Below are positions 1 to 18,744 of a DNA stretch of 64,000 bases, one piece after another; the stretch's first letter is position 1, and each line of letters opens with the position of its first letter. This stretch comes from a virus, in IMG/VR virus record IMGVR_UViG_3300021962_000074, positions 1 through 64,000 of that record; one strand, 5' to 3'. Both the position numbers and the translations under genes were made by a program. Below the pieces are notes generated by a model. The model was not told where the DNA came from. It ran no database searches and saw only the letters and a list, made by a program, of their open reading frames with translations.

Positions 1-5
1 GGTCC

Positions 6-145
6 ATGTCATGCATGACATCGAAGGCTAGAGCGGAAGTGTGTAGGACATACGGACTAGGGAAGCCTGAAAGGGCAGGAGGTTAACGAGTCCCTCCCCT
101 AGAGTCCCAAAAAGGACACACGACGAACCACCGCTAACAAACTAG
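6..145 (+). ncRNA. structured ncRNA of unknown family (possibly 5'-truncated by window edge)
   Basis: Nested helices AGCGG(32-36)/CCGCT(131-135), GTGTGT(39-44)/ACACAC(116-121), GGACT(54-58)/AGTCC(103-107); palindromic hairpin 6-21; no ORF. Confidence 0.55.
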
Positions 146-156
146 GTTCAAGAATT

Positions 157-296
157 TGGCTTGTCGTCTTAACTGGATAAGACGCATTCTAGTAGAGAGA
201 CCGAGTAGGGAAGTCCACTGGCTGCATCTAGGTTCGAGTCCTAGAGACTTCGTGAAAAGGTTGGAATGAAATGTGGGTTCGAGTCCCGCCAAGTCG
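157..296 (+). ncRNA. tRNA-like RNA with about 75-nt insertion replacing the anticodon loop and a second T-arm
   Basis: Acceptor TGGCTTG/CAAGTCG, D-arm GTCT-taactggata-AGAC, anticodon stem CATTC/GAATG, T-arm GTGGG-TTCGAGT-CCCGC; internal TCTAGG-TTCGAGT-CCTAGA; no encoded CCA. Confidence 0.75.
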
Positions 297-329
297 TTGA
301 TTTGATGGAGTTTTCGTAAGCGACTGATT
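290..329 (-). promoter_or_regulatory. two tandem IHF-consensus sites (27-nt spacing)
   Basis: Reverse complements AATCAAcgacTTG and AATCAGtcgcTTA match WATCARNNNNTTR. Confidence 0.55.
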
Positions 330-346
330 TGATGGAGTTTTTTTTA

Positions 347-376
347 GTTTACTTTTCAGTCCTAATGTAGGATAAT
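347..376 (+). promoter_or_regulatory. T4-type early promoter driving the ncRNA/tRNA region
   Basis: GTTTACT-N17-GATAAT with T-rich upstream tract; same architecture at 11435. Confidence 0.65.
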
Positions 377-381
377 GGTAT

Positions 382-522
382 CGTGGTAAGGTGATTCGAA
401 GCCTACGGGAAAGCCCGCCAAGTGCGGAACGTAACCTTCACAGGTCGGCGTAGGGAGAGGAAGATCACCACGTAGCGGGAGGCGGGAAGTCGGTGAAAAC
501 CCGACGGCAGGGGGCACGCTAC
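382..522 (+). ncRNA. structured ncRNA of unknown family
   Basis: CGTGGT/ACCACG, CCTACG/CGTAGG, GTAGCG/CGCTAC, GTCGG-TGAAAAC-CCGAC; begins at predicted TSS, ends in T-run. Confidence 0.65.
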
Positions 523-544
523 ATTTTTTGATAAATCAGAGTTT

Positions 545-662
545 TGCTGCTCTGACGCACGGCTAACTTAGGGGTTGTCAATTATTGACTTCCAACCGAT
601 GCGAATAGGTGAGTCGGTTCTTGTACTGTATCAGTACAGGCGCGCAAAAACCCCTAGCAGCA
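545..662 (+). ncRNA. structured multibranch ncRNA of unknown family
   Basis: TGCTGCT/AGCAGCA, TAGGGGTT/AACCCCTA and three internal hairpins. Confidence 0.65.
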
Positions 663-667
663 TTTCT

Positions 668-778
668 GGATCTGAGTCCTAAGAGCACTCAGAGTGCAGT
701 CGTCCGCAGCCGCACAAAGGGTTGCCCTGCAAACGGTAAGCAGGATCTCTGACGCATTGCGCCGATCAGAGCGTTCAT
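668..778 (+). ncRNA. structured ncRNA of unknown family
   Basis: Serial hairpins GCACT/AGTGC, GCAGCC/GGTTGC, CCTGC/GCAGG, CTCTGA/TCAGAG. Confidence 0.5.
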
Positions 779-787
779 TAACAATTT

Positions 788-964
788 GCGATTTTTGTAT
801 TCGCGCCACCCAGATGACGCAAGTCTAGATGGGAGCGTAACGGTGAACCCTCGATGTACTGAGGCAACTCATGACAACGTCCGTCAAGCGTTGTATTAGA
901 GAACAGTTTAAGAAACTGGGTAACCCCTGCGCCGAGTTGGGGGTGAATGGCGGATACAAATCGC
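788..964 (+). ncRNA. structured multibranch ncRNA of unknown family (177 nt)
   Basis: Closing helix GCGATTT-TTGTATTCGC/GCGGATACAA-ATCGC; two GCAA tetraloop hairpins; ACAACG/CGTTGT. Confidence 0.7.
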
Positions 965-966
965 TG

Positions 967-1003
967 CCAGTGTGGGTGTCACTGGAAATAAGAAACCACC
1001 CAC
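967..1003 (+). ncRNA. compact H-type pseudoknot upstream of first tRNA
   Basis: CCAGTG/CACTGG stem, loop TGGGTG pairs with CACCCA(997-1002), A-rich linker. Confidence 0.55.
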
Positions 1004-1010
1004 CGATTTC

Positions 1011-1084
1011 GGGGGATTAGTTAAATGGGATAACCTCTGCCTTGCACGCAGAAGTTGACAGTTCGATTCTGTCATCCTCCACCA
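1011..1084 (+). tRNA. tRNA-Ala(UGC)
   Basis: Cloverleaf, G3:U70, CCA. Confidence 0.95.
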
Positions 1085-1089
1085 AATTT

Positions 1090-1166
1090 GGGTCTATAGT
1101 ATAACGGTTTATTATCTGTGACTCTTAATCACTAGGATGTAGGTTCGAATCCTACTAGACCCACCA
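1090..1166 (+). tRNA. tRNA-Lys(CUU)
   Basis: Cloverleaf, CCA. Confidence 0.93.
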
Positions 1167-1172
1167 ATTTAT

Positions 1173-1249
1173 GCCCTGTTAGTTCAGAGGATTAGAACGC
1201 GACGCTACGAACGTCGAGGTCGGGAGTTCGAGTCTCTCACAGGGTGCCA
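1173..1249 (+). tRNA. tRNA-Arg(ACG)
   Basis: Cloverleaf, CCA. Confidence 0.95.
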
Positions 1250-1254
1250 GTTAT

Positions 1255-1338
1255 GCGCAGGTGGTGGAATGGTATACACGCTAGTCTTAGGAACTAGTGG
1301 CGAAAGTCGTGCGAGTTCGAGTCTCGCCCTGCGCACCA
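1255..1338 (+). tRNA. tRNA-Leu(UAG)
   Basis: Cloverleaf with variable arm, CCA. Confidence 0.95.
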
Positions 1339-1342
1339 AATT

Positions 1343-1545
1343 GTCAGAGTCGTGGCTGACGTTATAGTGTCCACGAACAGTAGCCTAACTGAGTTTTGGC
1401 ATGTAGTATCTGGTCGCTGGGATGCGACAACAGAGAAGCCAAGAACGTGAATGAGCGTTTGGGTCAACCACGACATCTACGCAAGGAACGGCAAGAGGAG
1501 GAGTGGGAGCATGCGCGGACGTGCGTTACAAAAACCGAGTCCGCA
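1343..1545 (+). ncRNA. structured ncRNA (about 200 nt) between tRNA-Leu and tRNA-Asp
   Basis: GTCGTGGCTGAC(1349-1360)/GTCAACCACGAC(1463-1474) 11 of 12 bp, inner TTGGC/GCCAA and GTCGC/GCGAC, 3' hairpin GCGGAC/GTCCGC. Confidence 0.65.
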
Positions 1546-1552
1546 AGATTTT

Positions 1553-1629
1553 GGTCTGTTAGTGTAGTTGGTGAACATGCCTGCCTGTCACGCAGGAGAT
1601 CACGGGTTCGAGTCCCGTACAGACCGCCA
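1553..1629 (+). tRNA. tRNA-Asp(GUC)
   Basis: Cloverleaf, CCA. Confidence 0.95.
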
Positions 1630-1635
1630 AATTTT

Positions 1636-1684
1636 CTGTCTCTGATGAGTCCGTAGGGACGAAACGCAGTGATGCGTCAGACAG
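1636..1684 (+). ncRNA. type I hammerhead ribozyme (predicted cleavage after C1678)
   Basis: Stem I CTGTCT/AGACAG, CTGATGA, stem II GTCC-gtag-GGAC, GAAA, stem III CGCA-gtga-TGCG, GTC cleavage triplet. Confidence 0.92.
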
Positions 1685-1790
1685 CGAATCTACCTTGTGG
1701 TGTAAGGTTTGCAAAGTTGATTAGGTCTCTGAAATATATTGACAAACGGCATCATATGCACTGCCTAGTAGACTTTCAGAGTGAACCACA
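1685..1790 (+). ncRNA. pseudoknotted ncRNA downstream of the hammerhead
   Basis: ACCTT/AAGGT hairpin whose loop GTGGT pairs with ACCAC(1785-1789); inner helix CTCTGAAA/TTTCAGAG. Confidence 0.55.
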
Positions 1791-1797
1791 TTTTTTT

Positions 1798-1874
1798 GGG
1801 TGTGTGGCACAGTTGGTTAGCGCACAGTCCTGATAAGACTGAGGTCGGTGGTTCGAATCCACCCACACCCACCA
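1798..1874 (+). tRNA. tRNA-Ile(GAU)
   Basis: Cloverleaf, CCA. Confidence 0.95.
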
Positions 1875-1878
1875 ATTT

Positions 1879-1955
1879 CGGAGTGTAGCACAGTCTGGTA
1901 GTGCGCTTGCTTTGGGAGCAAGATGTCGGGAGTTCGAATCTCTCCACTCCGACCA
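1879..1955 (+). tRNA. tRNA-Pro(UGG)
   Basis: Cloverleaf, CCA. Confidence 0.95.
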
Positions 1956-1961
1956 GTTTAT

Positions 1962-2036
1962 GGTTCCTTCGTCTAGCGGCTAGGACACAACCCTCTCAAG
2001 GTTGGAACACGGGTTCGATTCCCGTAGGAACTGCCA
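1962..2036 (+). tRNA. tRNA-Glu(CUC)
   Basis: Cloverleaf, CCA. Confidence 0.95.
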
Positions 2037-2042
2037 GTTTAT

Positions 2043-2117
2043 TGGCGAGTAGATCAGTGGTAGATCAGCTGACTGTTAATCAGTATGTCGTAGGTTCGAT
2101 CCCTACCTCGCCAGCCA
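2043..2117 (+). tRNA. tRNA-Asn(GUU)
   Basis: Cloverleaf, CCA. Confidence 0.95.
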
Positions 2118-2122
2118 AATAT

Positions 2123-2197
2123 GCCCGTATAGCACAGTGGTAGTGCAATCGCCTTGTAAGCGATAGGTCCTCTGTTCGAATCAGAGTGCGGGCACCA
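2123..2197 (+). tRNA. tRNA-Thr(UGU)
   Basis: Cloverleaf, CCA. Confidence 0.95.
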
Positions 2198-2202
2198 GTT
2201 TT

Positions 2203-2278
2203 GCGAGATTAACTCAGTTGGTAGAGTGTCGCCTTTACACGGCGAATGTCGGGAGTTCGAGCCTCTCATCTCGCACCA
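2203..2278 (+). tRNA. tRNA-Val(UAC)
   Basis: Cloverleaf, CCA. Confidence 0.95.
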
Positions 2279-2280
2279 AT

Positions 2281-2355
2281 GGTGACTATGGTGTAATGGT
2301 AGCACAAAAGTTTGTGGCACTTTTAGCGTCGGATCGTAACCGTCTAGTCACCCCA
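2281..2355 (+). tRNA. tRNA-His(GUG), non-canonical T-loop
   Basis: G-1:C73, T-loop ATCGTAA, CCA. Confidence 0.88.
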
Positions 2356-2361
2356 GTTTAT

Positions 2362-2436
2362 GCGGATGTAGCACAGTGGTAGTGCTTCTGCTTGCCAAGC
2401 AGAAGGTCGTGAGTTCGAATCTCATCATCCGCTCCA
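2362..2436 (+). tRNA. tRNA-Gly(GCC)
   Basis: Cloverleaf, U73, CCA. Confidence 0.95.
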
Positions 2437-2441
2437 ATTCA

Positions 2442-2493
2442 TGTGAACCAACTAACTGTGATATCTTCCACAATCGGAAGAGTAGCGTTCACA
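2442..2493 (+). ncRNA. small structured RNA in tRNA array
   Basis: TGTGAAC/GTTCACA closing stem, inner TCTTCC/GGAAGA. Confidence 0.4.
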
Positions 2494-2502
2494 CTCTCTT
2501 AT

Positions 2503-2577
2503 GTTCCCTTCATCTAGCGGTTAGGATGCTTCCCTTTCAAGGAAGCCACACGGGTTCGAATCCCGTAGGGAACGCCA
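2503..2577 (+). tRNA. tRNA-Glu(UUC)
   Basis: Cloverleaf, CCA. Confidence 0.95.
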
Positions 2578-2581
2578 ATTT

Positions 2582-2659
2582 TGCAGGATGTGTGCTAGCA
2601 GTAATGTATAGCCTCAATCGGATGCCTGGAGTGAGCAAACCCAACTATCCCATCCTGCA
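2582..2659 (+). ncRNA. tRNA-sized structured RNA lacking a T-arm
   Basis: Perfect 9-bp terminal helix TGCAGGATG/CATCCTGCA, 78 nt, occupies a tRNA slot. Confidence 0.45.
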
Positions 2660-2669
2660 TCTTTTTTAT

Positions 2670-2743
2670 TGAGGGATCGTCTAAAGGCAGGACGCATGAC
2701 TTTGAATCATGCTATCTTGGTTCGAATCCAAGTCCCTCAGCCA
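2670..2743 (+). tRNA. tRNA-Gln(UUG)
   Basis: Cloverleaf, U1:A72, CCA. Confidence 0.95.
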
Positions 2744-2745
2744 AT

Positions 2746-2820
2746 GGGTCTGTGGCGCAATGGTAGCGCAGTTGGCTTTTAACCAATTGGTTCCGAGTTC
2801 GAGTCTCGGCGGACCCACCA
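2746..2820 (+). tRNA. tRNA-Lys(UUU)
   Basis: Cloverleaf, CCA. Confidence 0.95.
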
Positions 2821-2826
2821 ATTTTC

Positions 2827-2900
2827 GCCCTCTTAGTTAAAAAGCATAACACATTCTTGGTAAGAATGAGTCGGTGGAGCGTTACCACCAGAGGGCACCA
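2827..2900 (+). tRNA. tRNA-Thr(GGU), non-canonical elbow
   Basis: All stems intact; D-loop AG instead of GG; T-loop AGCGTTA; CCA. Confidence 0.87.
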
Positions 2901-2903
2901 GTT

Positions 2904-2978
2904 TGCAGTGTGGAGAAGTAGAAACTCGCTAGGCTCATAACCTGGAGATCATGGGTGCAAATCCCATCACTGCTACCA
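2904..2978 (+). tRNA. tRNA-fMet(CAU), initiator-like
   Basis: U1:U72 mismatch, CAU anticodon, T-loop TGCAAAT, CCA. Confidence 0.85.
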
Positions 2979-2983
2979 ATTAT

Positions 2984-3068
2984 GGACAAGTGGGTGAGTG
3001 GTTAAAACCGACTGACTGTAAATCAGTTGCCTACGGCTACGGTGGTTCGAATCCATCCTTGTCCACCA
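2984..3068 (+). tRNA. tRNA-Tyr(GUA)
   Basis: Cloverleaf with variable arm, CCA. Confidence 0.95.
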
Positions 3069-3076
3069 ATTTTTTT

Positions 3077-3166
3077 GGAAGAGTGGCAGAGTCTGGTTTA
3101 TTGCACTTGTCTTGAAAACAAGCAACCGTAAAAGGTTCGTGGGTTCAAATCCTACCTCTTCCGCCA
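3077..3166 (+). tRNA. tRNA-Ser(UGA)
   Basis: Long variable arm, G73, CCA. Confidence 0.95.
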
Positions 3167-3170
3167 ATTT

Positions 3171-3244
3171 GCCTCGCTGGTGTAACGGTAACATAACTGT
3201 CTCCAAAACAGTTGTTGGGAGTTCGAGTCTCTCGCGGGGTGCCA
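3171..3244 (+). tRNA. tRNA-Trp(CCA)
   Basis: Cloverleaf, CCA. Confidence 0.93.
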
Positions 3245-3249
3245 GTTTT

Positions 3250-3326
3250 GCGGTCGTAGTTCAGTTGGATAGAACATCTGCCTTCTAAGCAGAGAGTCGG
3301 GGGTTCGAATCCCTCCGATCGCGCCA
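3250..3326 (+). tRNA. tRNA-Arg(UCU)
   Basis: Cloverleaf, CCA. Confidence 0.95.
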
Positions 3327-3331
3327 ATTAT

Positions 3332-3421
3332 GGAGACTTGGCTGAGTGGTCGATAGCGGCATCCTGCTAAGATGTTTTTCGTGAAAGCGAAACGTGGGTT
3401 CGAATCCCACAGTCTCCGCCA
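3332..3421 (+). tRNA. tRNA-Ser(GCU)
   Basis: Long variable arm, CCA. Confidence 0.95.
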
Positions 3422-3426
3422 ATTAT

Positions 3427-3502
3427 GGTGAGGTAGCATAGCGGCTAATGCAGCACTTTCATACGGTGTTTATCGTGGGTTCGAGTCCCACCCTCACTAC
3501 CA
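3427..3502 (+). tRNA. tRNA-Met(CAU), probably elongator
   Basis: Cloverleaf, anticodon loop TTCATAC, paired 1:72; Ile2 identity not excluded. Confidence 0.85.
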
Positions 3503-3503
3503 T

Positions 3504-3579
3504 GTCGCCTCAGCTGAACTAGTGATAGCGTCTGCCTGAAGAGCAGAAGAGGTTGGAGCGTAACCAACAGGCGACACCA
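3504..3579 (+). tRNA. tRNA-Phe(GAA), non-canonical elbow
   Basis: Stems intact; C8, D-loop AG, T-loop AGCGTAA; CCA. Confidence 0.87.
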
Positions 3580-3584
3580 ATTTT

Positions 3585-3661
3585 GCCCAGATGACGGAAT
3601 TGGCATACGTGTCTGACTCAAAATCAGGATTTTGTGGGTTCGACTCCCACTCTGGGCACCA
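3585..3661 (+). tRNA. tRNA-Leu(CAA) without long variable arm
   Basis: 77 nt, Leu-type D-arm, A73, CCA. Confidence 0.9.
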
Positions 3662-3663
3662 AT

Positions 3664-3738
3664 GTTACGGTGGCTGAAAGGTTAGGCGGCAGTCTGCAAA
3701 ACTGCTTCATGCTGGTTCGATTCCAGTCCGTAACTCCA
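3664..3738 (+). tRNA. tRNA-Cys(GCA)
   Basis: Cloverleaf, U73, CCA. Confidence 0.95.
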
Positions 3739-3744
3739 ATTTAT

Positions 3745-3818
3745 TGAGGGATCGTCTAACGGCAGGACGCAAGACTCTGACTCTTGCTATCTAGGTTCGA
3801 ATCCTAGTCCCTCAGCCA
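3745..3818 (+). tRNA. tRNA-Gln(CUG)
   Basis: Cloverleaf, close paralog of 2670-2743, CCA. Confidence 0.95.
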
Positions 3819-3823
3819 ATCAT

Positions 3824-3899
3824 GGGCGTGTAGTTCAGTGGTATGAACGTCTCCTTGACATGGAGAAGGTCGCTGGTTCGATCCCAGCCATGCCCACCA
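3824..3899 (+). tRNA. tRNA-Val(GAC)
   Basis: Cloverleaf, CCA. Confidence 0.95.
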
Positions 3900-3900
3900 T

Positions 3901-3975
3901 ATCCTCGTGGTGAAACGGATATCACGGTTCTCTCCTAAAGAATCATTGCAGGTTCGATTCCTGCCGAGGATGCCA
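3901..3975 (+). tRNA. tRNA-Arg(CCU)
   Basis: Cloverleaf, CCA. Confidence 0.93.
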
Positions 3976-3983
3976 ACTAAATA
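3976..3983 (+). promoter_or_regulatory. T4-type late promoter (ACTAAATA)
   Basis: TAAATA 5 nt before ATG 3989. Confidence 0.55.
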
Positions 3984-3988
3984 GATGC

Positions 3989-4492
3989 ATGGAACCAAAA
4001 ATCTATACATACGACGAAGTCCGCGCCATGGCGATGGATGGCGACATCATGTTTCTTACAGTCAATAAGAAAGATTATCTTTCTAGACTGACGTCGTGGT
4101 TCACCAAATCGCCGTTCACACATGCGGCATTTTTGTTTTGGTATCATGGTCGTCTAATGGTTGTTGAATCAACCACGCATGGTGGCATTCGCATCGTGCA
4201 AGCATCTACATACAAGGATCGCAATTTTGGATTGATTGCTGCACCACGTCCGTGGGAGTTCATCATTGATGATGCCCTAGTGCGTAGTGGCACTGCAGAG
4301 TATGGCTGGTTCAGTGCGATGTATATCGGAATGCGTGAATTTGCTTTAAAACAATTCAATGTACGTCTACCAGTCAACAAGAACAATCGCAACAAAGCCT
4401 GTAGTGAATTTGTGGCAGAAGTGTTAGGTCTAAAAGATGTTGACATTTCGCCAAAAAGATTATATGATATATTAAATGCTCCTGTAGTGTAA
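3989..4492 (+). CDS. permuted papain-like NlpC/P60 (YiiX/YebB-like) hydrolase
   Basis: GDIMF...SPFTHAAF...VVES...ACSEFVAE, His-before-Cys arrangement. Confidence 0.75.
   Translation: MEPKIYTYDEVRAMAMDGDIMFLTVNKKDYLSRLTSWFTKSPFTHAAFLFWYHGRLMVVESTTHGGIRIVQASTYKDRNFGLIAAPRPWEFIIDDALVRSGTAEYGWFSAMYIGMREFALKQFNVRLPVNKNNRNKACSEFVAEVLGLKDVDISPKRLYDILNAPVV
4440..4468 (+). promoter_or_regulatory. sigma70-type promoter inside CDS, upstream of tRNA-Ile(UAU)
   Basis: TTGACA-N17-TATGAT. Confidence 0.7.
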
Positions 4493-4572
4493 CGGTTAGC
4501 ACGCGAGGCTTATACTCTCGATCTCCGCCAGATTAGCGGGTAGTCTAGGTTCGAATCCTAGCAGGAGCACCA
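4478..4572 (+). tRNA. tRNA-Ile(UAU) with long variable arm
   Basis: GCTCCTG/CAGGAGC-A-CCA, loop CT-TAT-AC, 24-nt variable region with CCGC/GCGG hairpin, canonical T-arm. Confidence 0.85.
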
Positions 4573-4582
4573 ATAAATAAAT

Positions 4583-4656
4583 GCGGGGTTGGCATAGTGG
4601 TTGTGTCCCAGCCTTCCAAGCTGGCTACATGGGTTCGATTCCCATACTCCGCTCCA
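4583..4656 (+). tRNA. tRNA-Gly(UCC)
   Basis: Cloverleaf, U73, CCA. Confidence 0.93.
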
Positions 4657-4680
4657 GTTTTTTAGAAGGGAGATAAGAAG

Positions 4681-4944
4681 ATGAAGAAGTTCCTAACAGC
4701 AATGGTTATGACTACAGTTGTGACTACATCACATGCTGATGTGAATACAGCCGTTCCTGCACCAACAGAGCAAGAATCATTTACAGTCAAGTGGCATCCA
4801 ACTTCAGTGGTCATCGGCGCAATCGCTGGTGGTGCACTTGTTGGTGGAGTCGGTGCAGTGATCGTCGGCGGTCTCGTCGGCGAAGGTGTCATTCGTATTA
4901 TTAAGAAGAAACAAGAGCAGACTGCTAAGGAAACGCAAGAATGA
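4681..4944 (+). CDS. signal-peptide protein with glycine-zipper membrane segment
   Basis: N-terminal signal, GAIAGGALVGGVGAVIVGG; RBS upstream. Confidence 0.7.
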   Translation: MKKFLTAMVMTTVVTTSHADVNTAVPAPTEQESFTVKWHPTSVVIGAIAGGALVGGVGAVIVGGLVGEGVIRIIKKKQEQTAKETQE

Positions 4945-5111
4945 TTCGTATTCTATTCCTAGCAGCATTCCTACTCATTGGCTGTGAAAAAGATCCAGTC
5001 ACCACCGAGGCTCGACTACCTGAGCCAACTTTCAAAGTCAACACTCCGCAGCAATGGAAAGAATATTGCGCAAGAGAGGGACAGGAGGATCCAGCATGTC
5101 CTTCCAACTAA
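4941..5111 (+). CDS. 56-aa lipoprotein (not in ORF track), resembles BTLCP N-terminal segment
   Basis: MIRILFLAAFLLIG-C lipobox; PQQWKEYCAREGQEDPAC; ATGA overlap with previous gene. Confidence 0.7.
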   Translation: MIRILFLAAFLLIGCEKDPVTTEARLPEPTFKVNTPQQWKEYCAREGQEDPACPSN

Positions 5112-5506
5112 ACGAAAACAACGAAGTCATACAGACTCCAGAACTCATGGAGTTACTAAACAAGACCAATCGTCACTTCAATAAATTTCGCTATGAATAC
5201 GATGAGAATCTTCATCGTCAGATTGACTACTGGACTGCACTGATTGACAAATACAATGCTGGTGACTGCGACGACTACGCACTGTCAAAGCGCAAGAGGC
5301 TGATTGAAGAAGGTGTTCCATATGAATGCCTGTTTCCTACAATCTGCACCGTGGGTAAAGAAGGTCATCTTGTTCTTGTCGTAAGAACAGACATCTGCGA
5401 TCTTCTTCTGGACAACATTGAGCAGCGAGTGGTTGGCGTTGATCGCGTGAACTACAAGTGGTGGTATCGTTTAGATCCCGTGAACAAATCATGGGTAATG
5501 TTATAG
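5096..5506 (+). CDS. bacterial transglutaminase-like cysteine proteinase (BTLCP/LapG-like) catalytic domain
   Basis: GDCDDYALSKRKRL...GHLVLVV...LLLDN (Cys-His-Asp); GGAGG before ATG 5096. Confidence 0.85.
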   Translation: MSFQLNENNEVIQTPELMELLNKTNRHFNKFRYEYDENLHRQIDYWTALIDKYNAGDCDDYALSKRKRLIEEGVPYECLFPTICTVGKEGHLVLVVRTDICDLLLDNIEQRVVGVDRVNYKWWYRLDPVNKSWVML

Positions 5507-5509
5507 TAT

Positions 5510-5594
5510 GCGAGTGTGGCGGAATCGGTATACGCAGCAGACTTAAAATCTGCCACTTTCGAGTTTGTGGGTTCGAGTCCCACCACTCGCACCA
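5510..5594 (+). tRNA. tRNA-Leu(UAA)
   Basis: Cloverleaf with variable arm, CCA. Confidence 0.95.
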
Positions 5595-5602
5595 GGATAT
5601 AT

Positions 5603-5761
5603 ATGAAAAGAGCATGGATAATTTGGGCAAAGGCACTGGGCGAGAAAGCCGCAGATTGCGATAGAACCGCAGACAGAGTTGCTATTGTGCGAACATGCAT
5701 CGTGGGCATAAACGTGCTCACTTGTTTTTTTATTGTTGCAAATATAATTCATAACTGGTAA
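5603..5761 (+). CDS. small conserved T4-like phage membrane protein
   Basis: MKRAWIIWAKALGEKA...ADRVAIVRT...IVANIIHNW; start moved off the tRNA. Confidence 0.75.
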   Translation: MKRAWIIWAKALGEKAADCDRTADRVAIVRTCIVGINVLTCFFIVANIIHNW

Positions 5762-6186
5762 TGAAAACAACTGATCTAGATGCAATGCAACACCACTCCA
5801 AGGAATATCCGATGGAGGTGGGTGCACCAAAGTTTGAACTTGAGCCAATACAAGATAAGAAAGATTTGGCTCTGCGTTCAGCAAAGTTACATGCGCAAAA
5901 AGAATATGAACGCATCATGGAATCAGTGCGTGTGTTGCAGAAGCAAGCAGAAGAACTCAAAGAAAGATTGGGTCTGTCTCAATTAGTGCATGGTGCAACG
6001 TATACGTTTGAACCAACAGCAGGTAAGAGTTACTGGCTGGTGGAAGATACTTATGCAAACATTACAAGGCTGGTGGTGCTTGGTCCTAAGAACTGGAGTT
6101 GCGGACCACCAGAATATTATAAGTATCTGGCACACATAAAGTGTCTAGGCGATAATACATGGGAGCCAATGAGAGAAGAGGAATAG
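5761..6186 (+). CDS. hypothetical protein (DUF2452-like)
   Basis: YPMEVGAPKF, coiled coil, FEPTAGKSYWL. Confidence 0.6.
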   Translation: MKTTDLDAMQHHSKEYPMEVGAPKFELEPIQDKKDLALRSAKLHAQKEYERIMESVRVLQKQAEELKERLGLSQLVHGATYTFEPTAGKSYWLVEDTYANITRLVVLGPKNWSCGPPEYYKYLAHIKCLGDNTWEPMREEE

Positions 6187-17362: not shown

Positions 17363-17721
17363 TGATAAGACAATACATCTTCGAAGGACTAGTAGATCGC
17401 GTGGTTGATGGCGACACCTATGACATCATTCTTGATCTAGGTTTCTACATCACACACACCATTCGTGTAAGACTCAAGGGTGTTGATACACCTGAAGTCT
17501 ACGGCAAGAATGCCAGTGAGGAAGGTCGCGTTGCTTCTGCTTATGTGAAATCATTGATTGAAAATCAGCGTGTGGTCGTACAGACTTATAAGAATGCACC
17601 AAGTTCATTCAATCGCTGGGAAGCAGATGTGTATTTCAATCTGCTTCTGGAAGATGGGTCAACCAGCCAAGTGAGTTTGGCTGATCATTTAGTTGAGAAA
17701 GGATATGCCGTTAGGGTATAA
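17362..17721 (+). CDS. thermonuclease (SNase-like)
   Basis: RVVDGDT...RVRLKGVDTPE...LVEKGYA. Confidence 0.9.
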   Translation: MIRQYIFEGLVDRVVDGDTYDIILDLGFYITHTIRVRLKGVDTPEVYGKNASEEGRVASAYVKSLIENQRVVVQTYKNAPSSFNRWEADVYFNLLLEDGSTSQVSLADHLVEKGYAVRV

Positions 17722-17722
17722 T
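17693..17722 (+). promoter_or_regulatory. sigma70-type promoter for tmRNA
   Basis: TTGAGA-N18-TATAAT. Confidence 0.55.
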
Positions 17723-17728
17723 AGAATT

Positions 17729-18043
17729 ATAGTGGTATGAAGCGAAATGAAGGTGCTGCGGACTCGGGTTCGATTCCCGACATCTCCACCAAAAGTGTAC
17801 TGTAAGTATGATTCTGTCGAAACACTAGATTCAGAAGTCAATAAATGTTTCGCAAGTACACTTCTTATGGGGATGCACTGGCTTCGACGGGGCAAGATAG
17901 TTAAGCAGACCACTGGAAAGGCGACGAACCTAATTCGCGCAAACTAAGTAATCGCAGCAAATGACGATTATTATGATTATGCCCTAGCGGCTTAATCTGA
18001 GTTTTGCAGGTTGGACTTGGAAACAGAATCAACCTGCACTTTT
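17729..18043 (+). ncRNA. ssrA: circularly permuted two-piece tmRNA
   Basis: Acceptor piece ends GGGTTCGATTCCCGACATCTCCACCA (17791); intervening 17792-17868; coding piece starts GGGGATG (17869, G3:U70); tag frame AANDDYYDYALAA* 17954-17995; 3' hairpin. Confidence 0.93.
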
Positions 18044-18078
18044 TCAACAATCCAATAATTGGAGTTTGGTAGATATAA

Positions 18079-18744
18079 ATGAATATACATCAAGTCTATT
18101 TTGATGATTCACAAAGAGTTAATCTAAACAACGAATTCATTCCATTTCGTAACATTCCGAATATGGAAACTCCATATCCCCAGTTTTATGAATATCCGAT
18201 ATTTAAATTTCTCCAGAACAAGTATGAAGAAGAGAAATATAATGGTCTATGGGGTTATGTCAGCTGGAGATTTCAACAGAAACTTCAAAGATTTTATCCT
18301 AATCTTACACCTGCAGATTATTGTCAGTGGATAATTGATAATCCAGGTTATGATTTTTATCATATGAATGTAGTGTGGAGAGAAACTGAATTGTTTGATA
18401 ATATATTTTTTCAAGGCGAGAAATGTCATCCAGGACTACTAGGCTTCTTTACAAGATTGGTTCATCTAAAAGGGTGGGATTTCGATTTACATAAAAAATA
18501 TGATCCAGAGTATTCCCTCACTTGCCACTATTATGTGATGAACACTAAGACATGGCGTCAGTGGCTAAGTTTTTTAGATGACACATTTGAGTTTGTTAAA
18601 TCTGATGCTCAATTATACAACTATGCGAATCGTGAAAGTAGGCACAGAAACAGTCCTTGGTATAACTGGGCGTTCATAGCCGAACGGATCATCACCATAT
18701 GGATTCACTTGAATCCTCAAGTCAAATTTCTGGCATACAAATAG
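18079..18744 (+). CDS. hypothetical, possibly glycosyltransferase-like
   Basis: WGYVSWRF...HPG...FIAER pattern; AT-rich. Confidence 0.5.
   Translation: MNIHQVYFDDSQRVNLNNEFIPFRNIPNMETPYPQFYEYPIFKFLQNKYEEEKYNGLWGYVSWRFQQKLQRFYPNLTPADYCQWIIDNPGYDFYHMNVVWRETELFDNIFFQGEKCHPGLLGFFTRLVHLKGWDFDLHKKYDPEYSLTCHYYVMNTKTWRQWLSFLDDTFEFVKSDAQLYNYANRESRHRNSPWYNWAFIAERIITIWIHLNPQVKFLAYK

Follow-up and report, generated by a model that had tools for sequence, protein, structure and literature searches.

A type I hammerhead ribozyme as the likely 5′-end module of a conserved pseudoknotted small RNA in the tRNA operon of a T4-like phage

Hammerhead ribozymes are well documented in the intergenic regions of phages and have also been found in bacteria and prophages (Perreault et al. 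2011, PMC3088659; Rfam RF00163, clan CL00010). Thousands of them are present in bacteria and phages, and according to the surveys their biological role there is unknown (PMC10085705, PMC3088659). In halovirus HF2, the 5′ end of a major transcript lies within 3 nt of the hammerhead site (Perreault et al. 2011, PMC3088659). A second group of small ribozymes, the theta (minimal HDV-like) ribozymes, place the cut on the 5′ side of their own fold and in this way trim the 3′ trailers of tRNAs in phages (Kienbeck et al. 2024, PMC10879173). The hammerhead described here lies in a stretch of 64,000 nt, positions 1 to 64,000 of IMGVR_UViG_3300021962_000074, which we call the window. The source record is an estuarine viral contig of 76.7 kb, rated 44% complete. 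T4-type baseplate proteins (hub/lysozyme and wedge subunits) are encoded in the window, and the source of the hammerhead is a T4-like phage. With the type I hammerheads of RF00163 the ribozyme has in common the full core, the junction of three helices, the open stem I and the GUC site; unlike the known type I examples, it occurs among the genes of a tRNA operon, in a one-to-one fusion with a conserved pseudoknotted RNA. Full-text searches of the literature gave no description of such a module of hammerhead and pseudoknotted RNA.

All features discussed below are on the + strand. The gene for tRNA-Asp (anticodon GUC, CCA encoded) spans 1553-1629 according to ARAGORN and scores 70.3 bits with the Rfam tRNA model. 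It is followed by the A/U-rich, single-stranded spacer AAUUUU (1630-1635), a plausible site for a host endonuclease that would trim the tRNA trailer. With the tRNA ending at 1629 and the ribozyme starting at 1636, the sequence-only reading had correctly placed the hammerhead 6 nt after tRNA-Asp. On the other side of the module, seven U residues (1791-1797) separate the small RNA from tRNA-Ile, whose 5′ end is at 1798 (ARAGORN). At gathering thresholds, Rfam 15 reported tRNAs and a permuted tmRNA and nothing else. Outside the tRNA sequences, no terminator-like site was found on the + strand of the tRNA array (1011-3975), and a single promoter-like site (TTGTCA-16-TATAGT, 1341-1368) is present in it, which is consistent with a hammerhead that cuts a polycistronic transcript.

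Contigs assembled from four public RNA-library runs were compared with positions 1200-2000; they leave about 1632-1820 uncovered and hence carry no information on the expression or the ends of the module. The segment 1333-1500, which belongs to an RNA at 1343-1545, is matched at 98.6-100% identity by contigs of three RNA libraries from three studies, whereas the neighbouring non-tRNA RNAs have no such coverage. The transcript of 1333-1500 may be an abundant stable RNA, or the matches may reflect DNA carry-over. Elsewhere in the array, Rfam places a tRNA at 3504-3576 (45.8 bits) that is absent from the ARAGORN list, giving 33 tRNA genes in the array. ARAGORN also reports a tRNA-Ile with the anticodon UAU at 4478-4572, unusually long (95 nt) and apart from the main array. 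The phage-encoded tmRNA is of the two-piece (permuted) type, is located at 17681-18086 and has the tag AANDDYYDYALAA; a permuted tmRNA is also present in the related locus L016.

The type I hammerhead occupies 1636-1684, as indicated by sequence, Rfam, fold, descriptor and covariation. Stem I is open and consists of 6 bp between CUGUCU (1636-1641) and AGACAG (1679-1684). The core segment C3-A9, CUGAUGA, is found at 1642-1648 and leads into stem II, in which GUCC (1649-1652) forms 4 bp with GGAC (1657-1660) below the loop GUAG (1653-1656). G12, A13 and A14 are at 1661-1663, the GAAA at 1661-1664 including A15.1, and stem III forms 5 bp between ACGCA (1664-1668) and UGCGU (1673-1677) with a GUGA loop. 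The closing pairs are G10.1-C11.1 (G1649-C1660) and A15.1-U16.1 (A1664-U1677). C1678 follows U16.1 as C17, and thus position H17 is not a G. From the hammerhead consensus, self-cleavage is predicted at GUC/A, between 1678 and 1679.

The Rfam model Hammerhead_1 (RF00163) aligned over its full length (model positions 1-45) to 1636-1684 with 30.5 bits (E 1.5e-4 in 6 kb). This score is just below the RF00163 gathering score of 34, a curated cut-off rather than a structural feature, and the related hammerheads described below score 28.4-33.9 bits. The minimum-free-energy fold of 1630-1700 is a three-way junction. We also wrote a hammerhead descriptor with minimum stem lengths of 5, 4 and 4 bp, in which the core, the pairs G10.1-C11.1 and A15.1-U16.1, and H17 are all required. 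This descriptor matched once in the 64-kb window and not once in 300 shuffles, both strands being searched. Together with the Rfam match and the fold, this places the hammerhead far beyond chance, and on these sequence grounds we regard it as genuine. Core, helices, Rfam, fold and descriptor thus agree on the complete catalytic core with a GUC site that had been described earlier, the cut after 1678 being a predicted position.

Relatives were collected with a 24-mer spanning the core and stem II, which yielded 30 IMG/VR contigs; looser patterns gave a few more. Of 185,579 species genomes, a single one contains the exact 24-mer, on the contig of a Planctomycete MAG that has a different stem I, and blastn with the modules of the window and of the relative L011 found no family member among 50,697 deposited phage records. 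In an alignment of sixteen distinct hammerheads of normal size (A1), 99.6% of the cells are paired, compared to 31-40% in slid controls. Five pairs have changed on both sides and these are distributed across all three stems, with U-A, U-G and C-G in stem I, a change from C-G to U-A in stem II, and three pairs in stem III. Among the relatives, the catalytic nucleotides vary solely at the free position N7 (CUGAGGA in L254), the one exception within the 16, and at H17, where L023 and L028 have GUA, which is allowed, for GUC. Five relatives (L016, L017, L023, L028 and L034) carry insertions of 45-90 nt in stem III. The structured insertions in L016 (9792-9924), L023 (11199-11330) and L034 (11665-11757) leave the core and stems I and II unchanged.

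An invariant core in the midst of drifting, covarying stems is the pattern that selection for catalysis would leave. This bears on the possibility that the hammerhead domain is vestigial, that is, no longer cleaving in vivo and kept as a purely structural element at the 5′ side of the small RNA. Such a loss of activity would fit the sub-threshold Rfam score and the fact that the family comparison revealed no conserved tertiary contact between the hammerhead stems, neither loop-loop nor pseudoknot. However, apart from N7 and the allowed variation at H17, the core did not change while the stems drifted and covaried, and we regard a vestigial hammerhead as very improbable.

Directly downstream of the predicted cleavage site lies a conserved small RNA with a pseudoknot, about 112 nt long (1679-1790) and defined by a covariance model and by covariation. 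Its nucleotides 1-6 also form the 3′ strand of stem I. The model, R1, was built from 15 relatives with the window deliberately excluded. R1 nevertheless aligned to 1679-1790 at full length (model positions 1-115) with 49.2 bits (E 1.2e-9) and had no second match anywhere in the 76.7-kb record, window included. Neither the window's copy of this RNA nor those of ten relatives matched a family of Rfam 15. Judging from these comparisons, it appears to represent an uncatalogued conserved family of T4-like and smaller aquatic phages.

The RNA begins with hairpin P1 (1684-1691 with 1705-1712), which was predicted by folding and of which the outer variable pairs covary; pair 8-33, for instance, is AU in five, GC in five and GU in three relatives. 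The base of P1 uses G6 and C7 of an invariant AGACAGC, so that G1684 is common to P1 and to stem I of the hammerhead. The 13-nt loop of P1, ACCUUGUGGUGUA (1692-1704), has the layout ACCU-UGUGGU-GUA. Its UGUGGU (1696-1701) forms the 5′ strand of a pseudoknot helix, and the 3′ strand, ACCACA (1785-1790), follows an A-rich linker at the end of the RNA; both strands are supported by covariation and the second also by R1. In alignment A3, 97.8% of the cells of this helix are paired and four of its six pairs have changed on both sides, giving compensated helices such as UAUGGU/ACCAUA, GAUAGU/ACUAUC and UACGGU/ACCGUA. A conserved arm (1727-1781) is composed of P3 (CUCUGAAA, 1727-1734, with UUUCAGAG, 1774-1781), an inner helix (1739-1744 with 1767-1772) and an apical hairpin (1748-1751 with 1762-1765). 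All three were predicted by folding, and P3 and the inner helix also covary in the relatives. Four helices are thus supported on A3, namely P1, the long-range helix, P3 and the inner helix of the arm. Since P1 and the long-range helix cross, the RNA is a pseudoknot of the H type whose long loop contains the arm.

The trinucleotides ACC and GGU are both duplicated: one copy of each lies in the P1 loop (1692-1701), and the second copies are found in AGGU (1723-1726) and ACC (1785-1787). Because of this duplication, both a fully nested and a doubly knotted fold are possible, and these could interconvert by a swap of partners; on this model, ACC/GGU partner swapping could act as a conformational switch. 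Covariation supports the knotted long-range helix between 1696-1701 and 1785-1790. A second knot, between ACCU of the loop and AGGU at 1723-1726, would involve invariant bases only, and its outer pair fails in L003 and L052. A compact H-type pseudoknot was also seen at 967-1003, just 5′ of tRNA-Ala, with the hairpin CCAGUG/CACUGG, the loop UGGGUGU, an A-rich linker and CACCCA. Apart from the missing arm, this pseudoknot is similar to the P1/ACCACA core of the small RNA, and it is not matched by R1.

The relatives allowed us to ask what the hammerhead is joined to. The sequence 3′ of their cut takes one of two forms: (a) a homologue of the 1679-1790 RNA, 105-190 nt in length, or (b) an mRNA leader hairpin, GACAG...CUGUC, that reuses the 3′ strand of stem I and is followed by a gene of 81 aa. 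The 81-aa product belongs to phrog_4973, of unknown function, and scores just below threshold with Pfam HTH_39; by sequence it looks like a winged helix-turn-helix protein. The same gene is also found 3′ of form (a) in several contigs. Form (b) loci include L005 (5249-5584) and similarly L002, L004, L007, L015, L024 and L026. Their hammerhead lies about 20 nt behind a promoter-like site and directly heads an mRNA with the 5′ GACAG...CUGUC hairpin.

When 58 loci were searched with R1, all 21 matches (17 distinct sequences, including that of the window) started at the hammerhead cut site. Five related records were examined as a whole, two of them rated 100% complete (188 and 197 kb), and each contains exactly one hammerhead and exactly one small RNA, which are contiguous. 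Motif scans of IMG/VR with the 5′ loop and the 3′ arm of the small RNA returned mostly coding sequence, and the scan with the arm motif added a single new true member, L254; all members found via small-RNA motifs alone have the hammerhead. A copy of the small RNA without the ribozyme was found neither in the window nor in the 58 loci or the five whole records of relatives, in a family sample that comes mostly from hammerhead-based or family-derived patterns and could therefore miss ribozyme-free relatives.

The upstream side, on the other hand, is variable. The ribozyme follows tRNA-Asp by 6 nt in the window and tRNA-Trp by 2 nt in L020, and it is adjoined by tRNA-like 3′ ends in L021 and L022. 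In L003, L001, L006 and L011, a promoter-like sequence (TTGACT-17-TAATAT or TTTACA-17-TAGTAT) lies 10-25 nt upstream, and in L038, L052 and L034 160 to 900 nt of other sequence precede the ribozyme. Most family members have no adjoining tRNA, whereas all have the downstream partner. The R1 matches at cut sites, the contiguous single copies and the variable upstream sequence indicate that the downstream RNA carries the ribozyme as a constant module on its 5′ side. Adjacency of hammerhead and tRNA is not conserved among the relatives, and by this comparison the position of the ribozyme next to tRNA-Asp simply reflects the local order of genes.

The same data speak to a function on the tRNA side, in which the hammerhead, in the manner of a theta ribozyme, would trim the trailer at the 3′ end of tRNA-Asp or fix where this trailer ends. 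Like the theta ribozymes, the window element is a small ribozyme, here with predicted self-cleavage, beside a tRNA gene of a tailed phage, and the four tRNA or tRNA-like neighbours just listed would suit such a role. A further type I hammerhead is found in Agrobacterium phage OLIVR1, where an unannotated RNA with the 3′ end ...CACCA lies about 11 nt upstream of it, and this too could be read in favour of a tRNA-side function. The OLIVR1 hammerhead is itself unannotated (RF00163, 31.4 bits; L261 470-650, MT234338 about 3830-4010), and the RNA of about 115 nt on its 5′ side is closed by GCCGGGG/CCCCGGC, ends in ACCA and receives no tRNA call from ARAGORN. The geometry, however, differs from that of the theta ribozymes, which cut at their own 5′ side (PMC10879173), have the nested double-pseudoknot fold of the HDV type and free the 3′ end of the tRNA. 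In a type I hammerhead the cut falls on the 3′ side of the ribozyme itself, which stays on the upstream fragment, so that tRNA-Asp would be left with a trailer of 49 nt ending in a cyclic phosphate, and the RNA that is freed would be the downstream one. Moreover, the adjoining tRNA is missing in most family members while the downstream partner is constant. The resemblance to theta ribozymes at the 3′ ends of tRNAs that had been implied for this locus is thus not borne out, and we consider it quite improbable that the hammerhead serves tRNA-Asp. No HDV-like family was among the Rfam matches up to E 10 in window positions 1-6000. The habitats also differ, the window phage being aquatic and the theta ribozymes coming from the gut.

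It had further been proposed that loop II GUAG (1653-1656) pairs with CUAC (1690-1693) in an activating pseudoknot that overlaps the first hairpin of the downstream RNA. Four Watson-Crick pairs are indeed possible, 5 nt beyond stem I, and CUAC does overlap the first downstream hairpin, as it spans the stem and the loop of P1. If cleavage depended on this pairing, the ribozyme would be coupled to the folding of the downstream RNA. In general, a pseudoknot between stems I and II is used by about 40% of hammerheads, as estimated by Perreault et al. 2011 (PMC3088659), and the unrelated hammerhead of the Planctomycete MAG, which has a GUAG loop, carries CUAC 11 nt downstream, a weak hint in the same direction. 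However, about 8% of random 30-mers with the composition of the window contain CUAC, and the complementarity is therefore not beyond chance. Among 20 distinct family sequences, a 4-bp partner of loop II within 30 nt was found in the window only, compared to about 1.6 expected by chance. Changes in the loop were not compensated either: L052, the nearest relative, which has an identical stem III, has AUAG opposite AUAC and would form 2 bp only, and in L038 AAAG is opposite UUAC. In most relatives, GACC takes the place of the CUACC of the window. In addition, the nucleotides of CUAC are occupied elsewhere, C1690 and U1691 in the covarying P1 stem and A1692 and C1693 in the loop of P1, as part of its invariant ACC. 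The comparison leaves the GUAG/CUAC pseudoknot unsupported for this phage, and a dependence of cleavage on it seems unlikely to us.

Taken together, the geometry and the comparative data point to 5′-end maturation and insulation of the downstream RNA. We propose that the hammerhead is probably the built-in 5′-end maturase and insulator of a conserved small phage RNA. It is established that hammerhead cleavage leaves a 2′,3′-cyclic phosphate on the upstream fragment and a 5′-OH on the downstream fragment. The tRNA operon would be transcribed into a single precursor, and once the polymerase has passed 1684, the hammerhead would fold and cleave itself co-transcriptionally after C1678. The ribozyme body would remain on the 3′ trailer of tRNA-Asp with the 2′,3′-cyclic phosphate, to be removed later by host nucleases. 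The downstream product would begin at A1679 with a 5′-OH, an end that may confer protection. The freed strand of stem I would then partly enter hairpin P1, where G1684 pairs with C1712, and the RNA would close into the H-type pseudoknot between 1696-1701 and 1785-1790. In the window, as in L022, L034, L038 and L254, the 5′ end of a tRNA lies within about 10 nt 3′ of the small RNA, so RNase P would set the 3′ boundary; here its cut at tRNA-Ile (1798) would free the 3′ side. In this way, the hammerhead would give the small RNA an exact, unphosphorylated 5′ end regardless of the upstream sequence. The earlier suggestion that a hammerhead within a polycistron defines the 5′-OH end of the 1679-1790 RNA is well in line with the start of all 21 R1 matches at cut sites.

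A 5′-OH end could also be used differently, for cleavage and religation or for circularisation, by RtcB or by a phage kinase/ligase pair. Hammerhead products are substrates of RtcB-type ligases, which speaks for such a device. The 3′ end of the small RNA, however, is not made by a ribozyme and should carry a 3′-OH rather than a cyclic phosphate. Pfam searches for RtcB, RNA_ligase and RNA_lig_T4_1 gave no match in the 76.7-kb record, which is 44% complete, and the control for the last of these families was also without a match. We consider a ligation device extremely improbable. As for what the mature RNA might do, we mention with little confidence that the module could represent a new class of phage effector RNAs that need a ribozyme-made 5′-OH, for example a decoy or inhibitor of a host enzyme of tRNA-/RNA-end defence or repair, with the ACC/GGU duplication as a switch between the nested and the knotted state.

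The proposed processing offers a concrete role for a phage hammerhead, that of making the exact 5′-OH end of a conserved small RNA by predicted cleavage. In sister phages the same role is proposed for the 5′ end of an mRNA with a hairpin, the sequence upstream being irrelevant in that case too. As in halovirus HF2, a viral hammerhead would have its cleavage site coincide with the 5′ end of a transcript, the mapping being that of HF2. The two systems differ in that HF2 is an archaeal virus whose hammerhead is a core variant and acts on an mRNA, whereas in the window the RNA concerned is small and non-coding and belongs to a tRNA operon.

Small RNAs other than tRNAs are also known from the tRNA operon of T4-type phages, where the species 1 and species 2 RNAs of T4 (rnaC and rnaD) are small and stable and are annotated without a stated function. 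R1, run with filters off, found no match at T4 rnaC/rnaD, and no hammerhead-family similarity was found at the T4 locus. We had considered homology of the 1679-1790 RNA to rnaC/rnaD, and none is detectable by R1. An uncatalogued RNA family supported by covariation thus adds to the puzzle of non-tRNA small RNAs in phage tRNA operons.

The arrangement can finally be compared with synthetic ribozyme insulators of the RiboJ type, in which a hammerhead followed by a hairpin strips a variable leader from the transcript and leaves a defined 5′-OH end. In both cases an upstream leader would be removed and the defined 5′-OH end would fold into a hairpin, cleavage in the window being predicted. By analogy, the mRNA-type relatives with their GACAG...CUGUC hairpin look like the natural counterpart of these synthetic insulators. 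The window element differs from RiboJ in being natural and in that its product is a pseudoknotted non-coding RNA.
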